DNA of 51,556 nucleotides from Candidatus Micrarchaeia archaeon (GCA_038880755.1 JAVZRC010000005.1:1-51556), one strand, 5' to 3'; positions 3,397 through 50,223 are shown, counted from the stretch's first letter. Numbers and translations: made by a program. The notes: generated from the sequence alone by a model not told the origin.

Positions 3397-3909
3397 TCAC
3401 ATTAAAATATCCATAAATATGTGGCTCATATAACCAATGAAGCCCCATAGTGCAATTAATGCAGCTTCACCAAACCCAAAGAATGTTGCAGATGCAAACA
3501 CAAGGAAGGAATACATCAATGAAGCAAATATTCTATGCACTGGTCCTCTATGTCTTGGTATTAATGACTCGATGAAGGATGTAATTATTGATGCAATGAA
3601 AACAGAAATTGCAAACACAGTTAGAACCATGGCTAAACCTGCATTCAACAGGGCTGAAAGATCTGGATTTATACCGAAATAAGATGAAATTGAAAGATAA
3701 ATTATGGAAAGAAGAATTATCAGAACAAGCCATCTGAAAATTCCTCTAACCTTGCTTCTCTTATGATCTATGTCTGGTATTAATGAGCCAAGTACAGTTG
3801 CTATAACTGCTGCAAACAGTACATTTTGATCCATGCCTGAATTTATAATTATACATAATATACCAAGGATTATCCCTATAATTGAATGAATCATCCAATT
3901 GCTCATCAA
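3397..3909 (-). CDS. membrane-bound metal-dependent hydrolase (YdjM/LexA-binding-like)
   Basis: H near N-terminus, GSLIPDIDH, HRGPVH and SHIFMD motifs within TM helices. Confidence 0.8.
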   Translation of the reverse strand: MMSNWMIHSIIGIILGILCIIINSGMDQNVLFAAVIATVLGSLIPDIDHKRSKVRGIFRWLVLIILLSIIYLSISSYFGINPDLSALLNAGLAMVLTVFAISVFIASIITSFIESLIPRHRGPVHRIFASLMYSFLVFASATFFGFGEAALIALWGFIGYMSHIFMDILM

Positions 3910-4000
3910 AACACCAATATTACCAACTTAATTTGTGATATAAAATATTGTAAAGATAAAAATAAAAAGATATACAAGCAATATATATTGTGGTGGGAGA

Positions 4001-4519
4001 ATGGTCAAAAAAAGAAGATTCAGCTTTTTTGATGATGATTTTGAAAGAATGTTTGAAAGAATGTTTGAGGAAATGACGAGGGGATTCGAGGACTTTGAAG
4101 AACTAGAAAAAAGAGCCAGAGAAGGAAAATCCTTTGTAAGGGGGTTCTCTATAACAATAGGACCTGATGGAAAACCGATAATACAGGAATTCGGAGATAA
4201 GCCACAAATTACTCCTAAAGGAGTAGAAGAAAAAAGAGAACCGCTTGTTGATATAATAAATGAAAAAAATGATATCAAAATAATAGCTGAATTGCCTGGT
4301 GTTAGAAAAGAGGATATTGAATTAAATGCAACTGAAAAAGGACTCGAAATAAAAGTAGATACTCCCGATAGGAAATATTACAAAAAACTTGAGCTTCCAG
4401 CAAAGATAAAGCCTGAAACAGCTGATGCTAAATATAATAATGGTGTTTTAGAAGTTATAATCAAAAAAGTTGAACCTTCAAAAGAAGAAGAAAAGAAAAA
4501 GAGAATAAACATCAAATAA
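4001..4519 (+). CDS. hsp20: archaeal small heat shock protein Hsp20
   Basis: Phe/Met-rich N-terminus, GFSITIGPDGKP, alpha-crystallin domain with AELPGV and AKYNNGVLEV, C-terminal I-x-I motif. Confidence 0.95.
   Translation: MVKKRRFSFFDDDFERMFERMFEEMTRGFEDFEELEKRAREGKSFVRGFSITIGPDGKPIIQEFGDKPQITPKGVEEKREPLVDIINEKNDIKIIAELPGVRKEDIELNATEKGLEIKVDTPDRKYYKKLELPAKIKPETADAKYNNGVLEVIIKKVEPSKEEEKKKRINIK
4040..4075 (+). repeat. in-frame 12-bp tandem repeat (TTTGAAAGAATG x2 plus one degenerate copy) encoding FERM-FERM-FEEM
   Basis: Read directly in the hsp20 5' region. Confidence 0.8.
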
Positions 4520-4580
4520 ATATAAAAAACAAACACAAACTTCTTATGTCATTGTCTAAATTGCAGGAAAAGGTGGTATT

Positions 4581-5477
4581 ATGATAAAAGGCTCTCCTGA
4601 TTTACAAGTTTGGATTTCGACAGCATTAGTATTCGGTTTGATAGCTGGTATACTTGGAGTTATAATGCTTATGACTGGAAATGAAATATCTATATTCGTA
4701 GTATTATTTTTCAGCTTAATATTATTAGGAATCCAATGGTATTTAGGTCCAATAATTGTTAAGTGGGTAAGTGGAGCAAGAGAAGTAAGTGTTAACGAAG
4801 CGCCTGAGCTCCATGCTGCTGTTGAAAGAATTGCTAAAGAATCTGGAATACCGAAGCCGAAGTTATATATTGTAAACAGCCAAGTTCCTAATGCATTTGC
4901 TTTTGGAAGAGGGAAAAATGACTCTGGAATCGCAATACACACTGGTTTATTGCAGAGATTAAATAAGCAAGAAGTTGAAGCAGTAATTGCACATGAAATA
5001 GGCCATATTAAGCACAATGATGTTGTGATAATGACTGTTGCAAGTGTTATACCTGTATTATTATACTATCTTGCAATTGCACTTATTAGCGGAAGAGATG
5101 ATAGACCAAATCCAATCGCTGTATTTGTTGGTGCAATTCTTGCAAGACTTTTAGGACAATTGGTTGTGCTTTGGCTATCAAGGCAGAGAGAATATTATGC
5201 AGATGCACACAGCGCATACATAATGAAAGATTCGATGCCTCTAGCAAGAGCATTGGTAAAAATTACATACAATATTCCGCAAGGCAACACGAATGAATCC
5301 TTAAGTACTTTATATGTAGCTGAGCATGAAATAGTTTCAAATAATGTTGCAAATGCAGTCAGCAGAAATGATCCAAATGCTTTATTAGCAGCAATAGAAA
5401 AAGAACCAGATAATCCACTTGAGATTATAAGTACACATCCAAGCCTAAAGAAGAGAATAAAAGCTTTATTTTCTTAA
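4581..5477 (+). CDS. htpX: zinc metalloprotease HtpX (M48 family)
   Basis: PNAFAFG, AHEIGH (HExxH), SRQREYYAD, STHP motifs; N-terminal TM helices. Confidence 0.95.
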   Translation: MIKGSPDLQVWISTALVFGLIAGILGVIMLMTGNEISIFVVLFFSLILLGIQWYLGPIIVKWVSGAREVSVNEAPELHAAVERIAKESGIPKPKLYIVNSQVPNAFAFGRGKNDSGIAIHTGLLQRLNKQEVEAVIAHEIGHIKHNDVVIMTVASVIPVLLYYLAIALISGRDDRPNPIAVFVGAILARLLGQLVVLWLSRQREYYADAHSAYIMKDSMPLARALVKITYNIPQGNTNESLSTLYVAEHEIVSNNVANAVSRNDPNALLAAIEKEPDNPLEIISTHPSLKKRIKALFS

Positions 5478-45905: not shown

Positions 45906-47807
45906 TTATTTCAATCTAATTGAATCCAAATCCATAGGAGCTCTTGCTTCTATTCCTATTGATCTTGAAATTGAGTTGGCGAATTCCTCACATTTCTTAG
46001 GTTCCCCATGATCGATTATTACTAAAGATGGCTTTGGCTTCATGGCTTTTATATAATTCATAAGTTGTCTTCTATCACTATGTCCGCTGAACCCTTCTGC
46101 TGTTTCGACTCTTAATTTAACTTGAATAGTTTCTAGCCTACCGTCTTCCCCTACAACAGCTACTTCTTTTTCTCCTTTCTGTATCTTTCTTCCTAATGAA
46201 TAATTAGTGTTAAAACCAACAAATATTATAGCGTTTTTAGGATCTCCTGCAAGTGCTTTAAAGTATTCAACAGAAGGTCCACCTGTCATCATTCCAGATG
46301 GTGCAAGAATTACGCAAGGTTCTCCTTCTATTATTTCTTGTCTATTTCCTTTTACTACTTCAAAAATTGGTGATTCAAATGGGCTCTTTCCACTTAAAAT
46401 CATTCTTTGTAAACTGTCCTTTAAATATTCTGGATAAACAGTATGAATTGCTGATGCTTCAAGAATCATTCCATCTATATATACTTTAAAGTTTGCCTTA
46501 TCTGGATTTCTTCTTGCAAATTCTTCAAATACAAGCATTATATCTTGAGATCTTCCTACTGAGAAAACAGGTATTAATACCTTTCCTCCTTTTGCTAAAG
46601 TTTCTGTAGTGATTTTTATTACTTTTTCCTCTGCTTGGGGTCTTGGATGATGGAAATCGTCTTTTCCTCCATAAGTGCTTTCTAAAATTAATGTTTCGAC
46701 TCTGGGAAATGTATTAACTGCTGGATTTAGAAGTTTTGTATGGCTGAATTTTATATCTCCACTATAAACTAAATTATGTAACCCATCACTTATATGTAAA
46801 TGTACTATCGAACTTCCTAAAATATGGCCGGAATTGTGTAGTGTAAGTTTTATTTCAGGACTAATATCAGTCACTTCTCCAAAATCTCTTGTTATACAAT
46901 GTAAAAGTGCTTTTCTTACGTCTTTTTCTTCATAAAGAGGAGTAAGACCTTGTTTTTTCATTACTTTAATGTAATCGAATGTTAATAAAGCCATTAGATC
47001 TCTGCTTGGGGGAGTACAATAAATTGGACCATCGTAACCCATTGCAAAGAAATAAGGAATAAAGCCACAATGATCTAAATGACTGTGGGACAAAATGATT
47101 GCATTTATTTCATCAAATGGAATGTTTAATGTAGATACATAAGGATAGAAATCCTTTGCTGTATCTGTTGCTTCGAATTTCAAACCAGCATCTAAAACTA
47201 TTTTATCATTTGATGTCTCTAAAAAGATGCACGATCTTCCAACCTCTTTGAAACCACCTAATGCAGTTATTTTAATCCATGATGTTTTTTCTGTATTTGA
47301 AAATATTCTTTTTCCTGTTTTTAAAAGGAATTTCTTTCTTACTTCAGCTTCCTTAAGCATTGTTGATCTTATACTTTTAACTATTTCTGAAGGGAGTGTT
47401 GGTGTTCTCAAAACTTTTGGTGCCCACCCAGTTGATTTTATTATTTCTTTTAATGTGGATCCACCTTTACCTATAACAAGGCCTGGTTTGTATGCTTCTA
47501 TCCATACTTCATGAAACTCTGGTGAGAATCTTATTTCATTCACTCCAGCTTCTGGTTGTATTAATTTCGTGATTGTTTCTTTCGCCTCTTCTGGCTTCAT
47601 TAAGAGATTTGATGCTGCCCTTATAATTACTTTTTTCTTTAGAGCGTTCGCTATGTCTTTAACTGGATTGTCGAAGGCGTAAAATTTCTCTATATTATCT
47701 ATATAGAGAATTATATCTGGGCCTTCTGCCTCTATTTTTGATATTGAACAACCAGTTGGAATAAACTGTTCTATCTTTTTTGATATTTCAGAAAGTAAGC
47801 TCTGCAT
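45906..47807 (-). CDS. fttA: beta-CASP ribonuclease aCPSF1 (FttA) with N-terminal KH domains
   Basis: GLVIGKGG KH motif, GGFKEVGRSC, SHSHLDH, GHILGS, ESTYG, GFSGHSD, HGE. Confidence 0.95.
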   Translation of the reverse strand: MQSLLSEISKKIEQFIPTGCSISKIEAEGPDIILYIDNIEKFYAFDNPVKDIANALKKKVIIRAASNLLMKPEEAKETITKLIQPEAGVNEIRFSPEFHEVWIEAYKPGLVIGKGGSTLKEIIKSTGWAPKVLRTPTLPSEIVKSIRSTMLKEAEVRKKFLLKTGKRIFSNTEKTSWIKITALGGFKEVGRSCIFLETSNDKIVLDAGLKFEATDTAKDFYPYVSTLNIPFDEINAIILSHSHLDHCGFIPYFFAMGYDGPIYCTPPSRDLMALLTFDYIKVMKKQGLTPLYEEKDVRKALLHCITRDFGEVTDISPEIKLTLHNSGHILGSSIVHLHISDGLHNLVYSGDIKFSHTKLLNPAVNTFPRVETLILESTYGGKDDFHHPRPQAEEKVIKITTETLAKGGKVLIPVFSVGRSQDIMLVFEEFARRNPDKANFKVYIDGMILEASAIHTVYPEYLKDSLQRMILSGKSPFESPIFEVVKGNRQEIIEGEPCVILAPSGMMTGGPSVEYFKALAGDPKNAIIFVGFNTNYSLGRKIQKGEKEVAVVGEDGRLETIQVKLRVETAEGFSGHSDRRQLMNYIKAMKPKPSLVIIDHGEPKKCEEFANSISRSIGIEARAPMDLDSIRLK

Positions 47808-47847: not shown

Positions 47848-48501
47848 TTAATATTTTTTCTTCTTTTCTTTTGATTTTTCTAATATTCTTTCAACCTCTT
47901 CTGGTTTATATTTTCTTATTCCATCTTTTGTTATTGCCACAATATCTATTCCACCACCTGACGCTGTGTCTCTTTTCTTTGCTGCGTTTATTGCCCTTGC
48001 TACGATCGGTATTGCTTCGTTTATTGTTGTTTTTTCATAGATATCATCTAAAACTGCTTGTGCTGAAAACCAGCCGCTACCACCATAAGCTGTATGATCC
48101 TTAACAGGAGTTACAGAACCGGACGGATCTAAAGTATATAGCTTTGGAGTTCCATCCTTTTCTACCCCACCTATTATTATAGCTACATAAAAAGGCATGA
48201 ATTTATACTGATATAATAAATTCTGTAAAAATGATACTGCTGCATCAACAGATATAGGCCTTCCTTCTCTTATTCGGAAGAGTCTAAACTCAACTGATAA
48301 AATTCTATCTAATGCCTCAAGATCCCCCGCTAATCCTGCTGCAGCAAATGCAATATGTTTTTCAGGTGTCCTTACTTTTTCTATATCTTCAGATATTACT
48401 ACCATCCCACCTGCAGTAACTCTTTTTTCTGCCGCTATAATTATACCATCGGTACACACTACACCTACTGTGGTTGTACCTGTTTTAATATTAGTGTCCA
48501 A
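47848..48501 (-). CDS. psmB: proteasome subunit beta
   Basis: Propeptide cleavage KTG|TTTVG, AAEKR, GSG, RDTASGG. Confidence 0.95.
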   Translation of the reverse strand: MDTNIKTGTTTVGVVCTDGIIIAAEKRVTAGGMVVISEDIEKVRTPEKHIAFAAAGLAGDLEALDRILSVEFRLFRIREGRPISVDAAVSFLQNLLYQYKFMPFYVAIIIGGVEKDGTPKLYTLDPSGSVTPVKDHTAYGGSGWFSAQAVLDDIYEKTTINEAIPIVARAINAAKKRDTASGGGIDIVAITKDGIRKYKPEEVERILEKSKEKKKKY

Positions 48502-48635: not shown

Positions 48636-48959
48636 ATGAAGAGAATAATAGTAAATAAATATAAAATATTAAGCAAGGATAATGAAAAACTAAAAGGACT
48701 TATGTTCTTAGATTCTGTAAAGGAAAGGATGGTTTTTAATTTTGATTCCGATGTTGATTATTCATTTCACTCGTTTTTTTGTCCTAAATTTGATATCATT
48801 TTCTTAGATAAAAATTGGATTGTTAAAAAATATTTTGAAATAAAATCTTGGAAGGTTATAAAGCCTGGAATAAAATACAGATATGTTATAGAAGCTGAAT
48901 CTGGTTTTATAAGGAAAAATAAAATAAAAATAGGAGATAAAATAATCTTAGATAATTAA
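48636..48959 (+). CDS. DUF192 family protein
   Basis: KGLMF, DIIFLD, YVIE, IKIGDKI motifs. Confidence 0.8.
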   Translation: MKRIIVNKYKILSKDNEKLKGLMFLDSVKERMVFNFDSDVDYSFHSFFCPKFDIIFLDKNWIVKKYFEIKSWKVIKPGIKYRYVIEAESGFIRKNKIKIGDKIILDN

Positions 48960-50167
48960 CGTTTGCCTTCTTTACCTGCCGTTATTCTTAAAGTGCCACC
49001 TATCTCCTTTATTGTAATATCTACATTTTTTGAATTTTCAAATAATGTGCGAATTTGATCTAATGAATAATTTCTTATAGCAGCTATGTTTGCTTGTATT
49101 GCTTCTTCGGAATAGTCTTTTGTTATGTTCTCTTCGAATTGCTTTCTAAATGCTTCTATATTTATTTCATAATAAGCAAGTCTTATTGGATGGTCTTCTT
49201 CTGGTTTTCTCCCACTTTCTAATTTTTGATATAATGATTTCGATAGTTGTTTTTGTTTTATGAATTGATTTACTCTCCTAAACTCTGCTTCTAATTCAGA
49301 AAGTAAATTATATATTGAATCATTTTCCGAAACGAACAAAAATGAAGAATTACCCAAATATGATAAGAATATTTTTTCACTGAAATCATTTATTTTATCT
49401 TGTGCCATCTGTGAAATTAATCTAATGAGTTTCATCTTTCCTTTTTCACCATGAAGTTCTTCATATTGATCTAATCCTTCTATTTCTAATTTTATAAATT
49501 TACTATTCTCCTCTTTTAAATACATGCTAATGTTTTTGATTAAACGTTCTACATCTGGTAAATCAACTAAAGGATCAAAAAGTTCACCGCTTTTATTTAG
49601 AAATATATTGACTAGAGCACGAAGTTCCATAGGGTCGAATGGTTTTTTGATATAGTAATCTGCACCGTACTGAATCCCAAAAAATCTATTTACAGTCGCA
49701 TCTGCAGCTGAAACTATTACGATTATTGTGTTCTTTGTCTCTGGATTTGATTTTACTTTCTTACAGATTTCTAATCCATCTACACCTGGCAACATTAAAT
49801 CTAATATAAGAAGATCTGGTTTGAATATATTAATTTCTTTCAATCCTTCGATGCCGTCATAAGCTGATTTTATTTCATATTTTTCTCCTTCTAAAGTAAG
49901 GCGTATTAGGTTGTTTATATCTTTATCATCTTCTATAATTAATATTTTTTTAGGTTTTTGAGTTTCAAGAACGTACCAGAAATCGAATTGACCGATGTTT
50001 CTGGCTTCGAGTTTTTCTTTAGCTTTTAATCTTACTAAAGCCCCTTTAACCTCTTCTGGCGTAACGTTTGAGAACTCTTTTATAATTTCGTTAGTTTCCA
50101 TAGCTTTATCTCTAGCTTTAAGAAAAGTAAGAATATCCTGTTCGAGTCTTAAATCATCTATTTCCAT
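48956..50167 (-). CDS. response regulator: N-terminal winged-HTH, receiver domain, degenerate GGDEF-like domain
   Basis: REC with ILIIEDD, PDLLILDLMLPGVDG, IVSA, ADYYIKKPF; then DPLVDLPD...EIEGLDQYEELHG...YLGNSSF. Confidence 0.8.
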   Translation of the reverse strand: MEIDDLRLEQDILTFLKARDKAMETNEIIKEFSNVTPEEVKGALVRLKAKEKLEARNIGQFDFWYVLETQKPKKILIIEDDKDINNLIRLTLEGEKYEIKSAYDGIEGLKEINIFKPDLLILDLMLPGVDGLEICKKVKSNPETKNTIIVIVSAADATVNRFFGIQYGADYYIKKPFDPMELRALVNIFLNKSGELFDPLVDLPDVERLIKNISMYLKEENSKFIKLEIEGLDQYEELHGEKGKMKLIRLISQMAQDKINDFSEKIFLSYLGNSSFLFVSENDSIYNLLSELEAEFRRVNQFIKQKQLSKSLYQKLESGRKPEEDHPIRLAYYEINIEAFRKQFEENITKDYSEEAIQANIAAIRNYSLDQIRTLFENSKNVDITIKEIGGTLRITAGKEGKR

Positions 50168-50223
50168 AATATCTAATATACTTTAGTATAAAAGAATTAA
50201 AAACTTATTATTGAAATTATATT

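Follow-up and report, generated by a model that had tools for sequence, protein, structure and literature searches.

The 51,556-nucleotide stretch of DNA analyzed here, referred to as the window, comes from a Candidatus Micrarchaeia archaeon (GCA_038880755.1 JAVZRC010000005.1:1-51556), the assembly of which comprises 685 kb in 17 contigs and is 83% complete. Near its end lies an open reading frame (ORF) on the minus strand encoding a response regulator of 403 amino acids with an ATG start, and a PAS histidine kinase gene is divergently transcribed from the other side of a short promoter region (Table 1). The regulator consists of a winged helix-turn-helix (wHTH) at its N-terminus, a receiver (REC) domain with its phosphorylation residues intact, a domain homologous to GGDEF diguanylate cyclases with a dead active site, and a conserved C-terminal tail. 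It is a single-copy gene conserved throughout the phylum and linked to the kinase. A sequence-only reading of the window had proposed such a protein; its span coincides exactly with the called ORF and all the motifs it named lie within the 403 residues, namely ILTFLK (residues 12-17), LILDL including D123, S153, KKPF including K175, DPLVDLPD (198-205), EIEGLDQYEELHG (228-240), and YLGNSSF (270-276).

When the window regulator alone was scanned with Pfam and NCBIfam, only the receiver was identified, and family profiles were needed to detect the other domains. A full-length family profile searched against the PDB was dominated by receiver matches, so domain-specific alignments were cut. The receiver matches PF00072 with 88.5 bits (cut-off 30.2; E = 4e-25, residues 75-186), and in the family alignment (A1, 62 sequences), which is the basis of the residue counts given below, E79, D80, D123, S153, Y172, and K175 are invariant (62/62 homologues). 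By every sequence criterion it is thus a functional phospho-acceptor. In NCBIfam and the PDB, the regulator comes closest to OmpR/PhoB-type receivers (PhoB, YycF, and MtrA), in the receiver part only, with NCBIfam OmpR/PhoB-type scores far under the equivalog cut-offs. The C-terminal Trans_reg_C winged-helix output of OmpR/PhoB regulators was absent from the NCBIfam scan.

The full-length protein was modeled with AlphaFold2 (AF2) from the family alignment, giving a mean predicted local distance difference test score (pLDDT) of 81.5 and a predicted template modeling (TM) score of 0.75. At the N-terminus the model has helices at residues 3-19, 25-31, and 37-49 followed by strands at 53-58 and 61-67 (pLDDT 85-96), and this helix-helix-helix-strand-strand order is the winged-helix topology. 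Taken alone, the window protein matches no HTH family in Pfam, even at E ≤ 1. A family profile built on the first 72 residues (A3), searched against the PDB, matched only winged-helix domains, including CodY (8e-6), TFE (3.9e-5), Zalpha, HlyU/SmtB of the ArsR family, MecI/BlaI, MarR, and Lrp, and single family members matched MarR_2 (4.9e-7), Penicillinase_R (3.7e-6), TrmB, HTH_20, and HTH_5 in Pfam. The conserved residues R56 and G59 fall in the wing strands and the intervening loop according to the alignment and the model. The sequence-only reading was therefore right about an N-terminal wHTH, an intact REC, and an HTH placed before the receiver, unlike in OmpR/NarL; the wHTH belongs to a different family from the Trans_reg_C output domain of OmpR/PhoB.

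A winged helix need not bind DNA, and the regulator could instead act by protein contacts, for instance with the basal transcription machinery. A census has argued that archaeal response regulators work chiefly through protein-protein interaction (Galperin, Makarova, Wolf, and Koonin, J Bacteriol 2018; PMC5847659), winged helices can bind proteins or RNA, as the TFE and Zalpha matches of the N-terminal profile recall, and the 56-bp divergent promoter holds no conserved operator-like repeat or DNA target that we could detect. Most of the profile and Pfam matches, however, are DNA-binding repressors (CodY, ArsR/SmtB, MecI/BlaI, MarR, TrmB, and Lrp), the conserved R56 and G59 lie in the wing, and archaeal FilR1 and LtrR have been described as transcription regulators (PMC5847659). 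We consider a regulator that makes protein contacts only to be unlikely.

In the window protein alone, the region following the receiver has no match to Pfam GGDEF (PF00990) at E ≤ 1 and does not reach the gathering score of 23.8 bits. PF00990 was found at E ≤ 0.01 in 20 of the 62 family members, at best with 2.9e-5, and four of a sample of ten members matched it, covering positions ~3-93 of its 161 with scores of 13.6-20.2 bits. Searching the PDB with a C-terminal-only family profile (A2, residues 193-403) returned GGDEF chains as top matches (6eib 0.0016 and DosC 0.0021). The same profile was searched exhaustively against 1.84 billion representative proteins, recovering its own family as 12 clusters at E < 1e-30 and then a tail of 1,225 proteins with a best E of 5e-15, in which Pfam-verified GGDEF proteins appear at E 5e-15 to 1e-8. 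All ten tail proteins sampled were above the Pfam GGDEF threshold (24.5-68.8 bits), several being REC-GGDEF or REC-GGDEF-EAL proteins. Aligned by hhalign to 102 such GGDEF domains, 98 of them with GGDDF, A2 matched at 99.3% with E = 1e-20 over 111 columns, corresponding to residues 197-307.

Structure comparison points the same way. The best Foldseek matches of the full model are WspR, PleD, and DgcR (E about 3e-13, ~300 columns), and with a C-terminal-only AF2 model (pLDDT 73) GGDEF domains again rank first, DosC at TM 0.55-0.58 and the GGDEF domains of SadC and DgcB also being matched. The GGDEF cores of T. maritima, 3mtk, and FimX superpose on this model at 2.3-3.5 A over 92-110 columns, and other palm folds (Cas10, Thg1, and class III cyclases) follow after GGDEF. 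AF2 secondary structure and Foldseek both give the palm fold, beta-alpha-alpha-beta-beta-alpha-beta, with core elements comprising the wide turn FDPLVDLPD, beta1 LEIEGL, alpha1/2 RLISQMAQD, a beta2-beta3 hairpin carrying GNSSF where GGDEF would be, and alpha3. We conclude from the profile and fold comparisons that residues 197-307 are homologous to GGDEF. HMMER and hhalign place DPLVDLPD on DxLTGLPN, EIEGL on DIDxF, and YLGNSSF on RxGGDEF, the very register of the sequence-only reading, which had also recognized the GGDEF fold after the receiver, the loss of its catalytic residues, and a C-terminal extension beyond it; of the two doubts it had left, over the palm fold and over the N-terminal wHTH, neither persists.

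The nearest catalytically intact relatives are REC-GGDDF proteins labeled Chloroflexota, Armatimonadota, "bacterium," and in one case "archaeon." Five of the A2 matches (P0133, P0135, and P0137-P0139) and ~100 further ones form a distinct, mostly bacterial (Chloroflexota and Armatimonadota) GGDEF subclass with the motifs NPLTxLPGN, DxDNFKxYNDxYGFxxGD, and GH[IV]GGDDF, in which fusion to REC is frequent. Within this subclass, the Pfam GGDEF match covers only positions 5-105 or so of the 161 in the model, and weak matches to Cas10 palm2 occur in some members. We found no literature specific to a "GGDDF" subclass of GGDEF. Another protein, P0136 (318 aa, on a 1.5-kb Logan contig), is a distant wHTH-REC-degenerate GGDEF with HVEENKF in place of GGDEF and no tail, and may be truncated or come from another lineage.

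PleD numbering was transferred to the family through the HMMER/hhalign register. The position of the Mg2+ ligand D327 is Arg or Lys in 45/62 members and E228 in the window regulator; that of the guanine-binding N335 is Ala in 33/62 and Glu, Gln, or Ser in most others (E236 in the window); and that of D344 is Ile, Met, or Val in 39/62 and Arg or Lys in 15/62 (M245 in the window). The GGEEF signature has become GNSSF in the window protein and is variable across the family (N/G, G/E/S/N, D/G/S, D/E/S). The I-site RxxD, expected five residues upstream of GGDEF, is absent family-wide, with S/G/E/K at position -9 and V/I/G/A at -6. Since the residues lost differ between subclades, the active site has long been unconstrained, and on its residues the window domain is clearly no cyclase. 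Some remaining or modified activity as a nucleotidyl-cyclase or transferase might be sought in view of the many members that still have D[DE]F and are acidic at the D329 position, and of the intact GGDDF-type domains that are the closest relatives. Yet the first metal-binding Asp is replaced by Arg or Lys in 45/62, the base-binding residues and the GG are gone, the window regulator has GNSSF, and the subclade-specific losses fit relaxed constraint, making such activity highly improbable.

What the family has kept lies elsewhere in the domain. The wide turn FDPLxDLP is invariant or nearly so, as are R249, S252, Q253, Q256, and D257 on alpha2 and F302 and Q305 on alpha3. The tail is likewise conserved within the family, including Y367 and D383, with the consensus YTYxELRxxxGSxxLDITITRDxxGVRLSxGK. 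In the AF2 model it comprises the end of the long alpha3, a strand at 329-335, low-confidence helices, and a terminal beta-hairpin at 382-399, with pLDDT 69-78 for residues 321-340, 46-57 for 341-403, and values under 50 in stretches at 347-372. In HMMER alignments, true GGDEF proteins cover the profile up to position ~175 of 208 at most, so the palm domain may be completed by a portion of the tail, the strand at 329-335. A MAFFT alignment with GGDDF-type proteins in which the whole tail figured as the GGDEF C-terminus was rejected, the hhalign homology ending at ~307.

These conserved elements could mean that the dead GGDEF domain and the tail act as a receptor, binding a nucleotide or another small ligand that may come from the host, with the regulator integrating this second signal with phosphorylation. 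Degenerate GGDEF domains are established as c-di-GMP receptors in bacteria and Micrarchaeota are host-associated, and the polar stripe R249/S252/Q253/Q256/D257/Q305 would offer a candidate site. Several points speak against a receptor: RxxD is missing family-wide, the N335 and D344 equivalents are lost, and no canonical GGDEF turned up at E ≤ 1 in the 83% complete assembly of the window genome, so that there would be no endogenous c-di-GMP source to sense. The R..S(Q) of alpha2 also occurs in active DosC (ILRKVSQ) and in GGDDF-type relatives, which suggests that the stripe is at least partly structural. We judge a receptor role rather improbable, and of the two functions offered by the sequence-only reading for the dead cyclase, nucleotide sensor or interaction module, the second is favored and the first has become less likely.

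The adjacent kinase has a PAS-PAS-HisKA arrangement in Pfam (PAS 3.6e-20 and HisKA 1.2e-15) and its ORF is cut by the contig end. The window ends with KRLAKL and another contig of the assembly, C16, starts with the overlapping LAKLINDLL and carries the kinase HATPase domain (positions 3-596) followed by a Toprim/topoisomerase gene, as in the related locus L008. The joined kinase would have about 640 aa, a length matching that of kinases in genomes of the same genus, and no obvious transmembrane segment. Among 20 loci from eight families, a homologous kinase lies ≤5 kb from the regulator in 16 of the 18 that are informative; with the window and five loci from an exact look-up (6/6) the count becomes 22/24.

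Two locus layouts occur, the divergent adjacent one of the window and one, in other families of Micrarchaeota, in which a poorly conserved gene X is located between the kinase and the regulator; no X gene separates them in the window. X is found at 3912-4883 (-) in L010, 3940-4890 (-) in L011, and 3551-4942 (+) in L009, encoding 316-463 aa without a Pfam match. It was rejected as a third component of the system, its two Micrarchaeaceae-type copies being Ser/Thr-rich and only 27% identical to each other, with the Gugararchaeum one unrelated.

In the divergent promoter region and the upstream regions of L013, L016, and L008, a TTTAAT(T) box, kept in four related genomes, is located ~22 nt upstream of the kinase ATG, and a TTTTATAC box is located ~19 nt upstream of the regulator ATG. 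The two boxes suggest back-to-back archaeal promoters giving near-leaderless mRNAs, the TTTAAT(T) box being consistent with a TATA box. The palindrome TATACT-TT-AGTATA was considered as an operator and rejected because it varies between genomes of the same genus.

Table 1. Position of the response regulator, its domains, and neighboring genes in the window
Feature	Position	Strand	Basis
Response regulator ORF	48956..50167	(-)	ORF listing of window
Winged-helix domain, residues 1-68	49964..50167	(-)	AF2 topology and family profile
REC domain, residues 73-191, phospho-acceptor D123	49595..49951	(-)	Pfam PF00072
Degenerate GGDEF (palm) core, residues 197-307	49247..49579	(-)	hhalign, profile searches, Foldseek
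Family-specific C-terminal tail, residues 308-403	48959..49246	(-)	Family conservation; outside hhalign match
Divergent promoter region, regulator/histidine kinase, 56 bp	50168..50223	(.)	Sequence inspection
PAS-PAS-HisKA histidine kinase, 5' part, runs off window/contig end	50224..51555	(+)	Pfam
FttA/aCPSF1	45906..47807		Pfam
Proteasome beta subunit	47848..48501		Pfam
DUF192 (COG1430) gene	48636..48959	(+)	

The C-terminal profile matched 137 of the 301 genomes sampled across the phylum and 88 of the 176 high-quality ones, almost always once per genome and in a full-length frame of ~400 aa. At least 11 sampled families of the phylum lack the gene. The wHTH profile and the GGDEF-like profile match one and the same ORF in all 20 of the loci examined, which represent eight families. 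The best protein matches of the window place it in Micrarchaeota. The family extends to Micrarchaeaceae and acid-mine-drainage members, full-length and 36-40% identical to the window regulator, such as the acid-mine-drainage homologue EQD35327.1 (37% identity, 99% coverage). The window regulator itself belongs to a divergent low-GC subclade that is 35-40% identical to the Micrarchaeaceae-type majority. In one genome (G179, C3:419687-420304) the C-terminal region is spread over four consecutive short frames of 54-224 aa, which may reflect a frameshifted pseudogene or a misassembly.

Such a distribution bears on whether the gene could come from bacterial DNA contaminating an archaeal bin. Most of the nearest intact GGDEF relatives are indeed bacterial, but single-copy occurrence in 137/301 genomes of the phylum includes single-contig genomes, and in the window the regulator is situated among the kinase and archaeal genes for a proteasome beta subunit and FttA/aCPSF1 in conserved synteny. 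Its base composition is like that of the rest of the window, where G+C is 27-37% throughout. Conserved archaeal synteny and phylum-wide occurrence lead us to reject contamination, the chance of which we regard as negligible.

The DUF192 gene is convergent with the regulator, overlapping its stop by 4 nt, and is not present at the equivalent position in L008. Elsewhere in the window genome, two further REC-containing ORFs bring the total to three, both of them short, with frames 129 and 166 aa long. REC or HisKA sites outside the window locus are at C3:50477-51473, C9:25785-26039, and C2:55402-55569; the genome has about three kinases, two of them further HisKA kinases, including one of 1031 aa beside a stand-alone REC on C3.

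On balance, we lean toward a phosphorylation-switched wHTH transcription factor in which the dead GGDEF and tail serve as a dimerization or partner module. The soluble PAS histidine kinase encoded by the divergently transcribed neighbor would phosphorylate D123 of the receiver, and phosphorylation would change the oligomeric or conformational state of the regulator, as in OmpR/PhoB-like receivers, thereby controlling the binding of the N-terminal winged helix to DNA. The C-terminal domain would descend from a bacterial-type REC-GGDEF (WspR-like) regulator, having lost its GTP-binding, catalytic, and c-di-GMP-feedback residues, and would have been kept, with the family-specific tail, as a structural dimerization or partner-binding module. 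The architecture, receiver residues, dead GGDEF, kinase linkage, and phylum-wide single-copy conservation described above are what the data show; phosphotransfer, DNA binding, and this scaffold role are inferred. Weighing against the proposal are the TFE and Zalpha matches of the N-terminal profile, the promoter free of a recognizable operator, the D[DE]F and acidic D329 position retained by most family members (not the window regulator), and the polar stripe with its conserved tail, which could be a ligand or partner site going beyond a scaffold.

The protein is a lineage-typical, output-bearing two-component regulator of Micrarchaeota, a group of minimal archaea that depend on hosts and possess very few regulators. 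As a conserved output-bearing regulator it probably controls a central response, possibly a host-linked one. A bacterial-type REC-GGDEF module appears to have become fixed vertically in this archaeal lineage after catalysis was lost, which bears on the debate over c-di-GMP machinery in Archaea, the domain clearly being no cyclase. That the phylum-wide dead GGDEF with its polar stripe and ~95-residue tail constitutes a new ligand- or partner-sensing module seems a long shot; were it so, a second signal, such as a metabolite or nucleotide from the host, would be combined with the kinase input in the main output regulator of these host-dependent archaea.

This architecture had already been catalogued for Micrarchaeota in 2018. 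Table S3 of the census lists UNLARM2_0239 as "(wHTH-REC-GGDEF)," the domain of Ca. Micrarchaeum being called a "WspR-like, inactivated GGDEF," and Table S2 gives Mia14_0100 as "wHTH-REC-bGlyc" (PMC5847659). The "bGlyc" is probably the same domain as the ARMAN GGDEF under an inconsistent label. The Micrarchaeota members of the census (ARMAN-2 UNLARM2_0239/EET90385, ARMAN-1 BK997_02000, and Mia14_0100) share with the window regulator the phylum, the three-part architecture, and, for UNLARM2_0239 and Mia14_0100, a PAS/GAF kinase one or two genes away (PMC5847659), a likeness drawn from the census descriptions. The window regulator differs in having GNSSF in place of N[GS]DDF, and E-I-E at the DxD position. 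The same census noted that Archaea are generally without response regulators having GGDEF outputs and raised contamination for bacterial-type regulators of unfinished genomes, including Micrarchaeum acidiphilum, leaving it open, without an analysis of distribution, synteny, or residues (PMC5847659). The present data settle that doubt and define the conserved residues without revealing a new kind of system; the novelty that remains is the conserved tail and polar stripe. No functional study of these wHTH-REC-GGDEF regulators was found in the literature, and a 2026 paper describing active GGDEF proteins from archaea makes no mention of Micrarchaeota.

Among bacterial systems, WspR (PA3702), PleD, and DgcR share with the window regulator the order REC then GGDEF and the fold, with the wide turn, beta1, alpha2, beta2-beta3 hairpin, and alpha3 in register. 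They differ in having no N-terminal wHTH and in retaining intact GG[DE]EF, Mg2+, guanine, and I-site residues with which they make c-di-GMP, and they have no counterpart of its last ~95 residues. PopA, PelD, and the GGDEF of FimX are, like the window domain, catalytically dead GGDEF folds in non-enzymatic roles, FimX (3hva) matching it structurally at 3.5 A over 110 columns. For c-di-GMP binding, PopA and PelD use an RxxD I-site that they have kept; the window regulator lacks this site. Within the Archaea, FilR1 (wHTH-DUF1724-REC) and LtrR (HTH-REC) resemble the window regulator in domain order, their DNA-binding domain being N-terminal to REC, and differ from it in their other middle or C-terminal content, which includes no GGDEF-like domain (PMC5847659).

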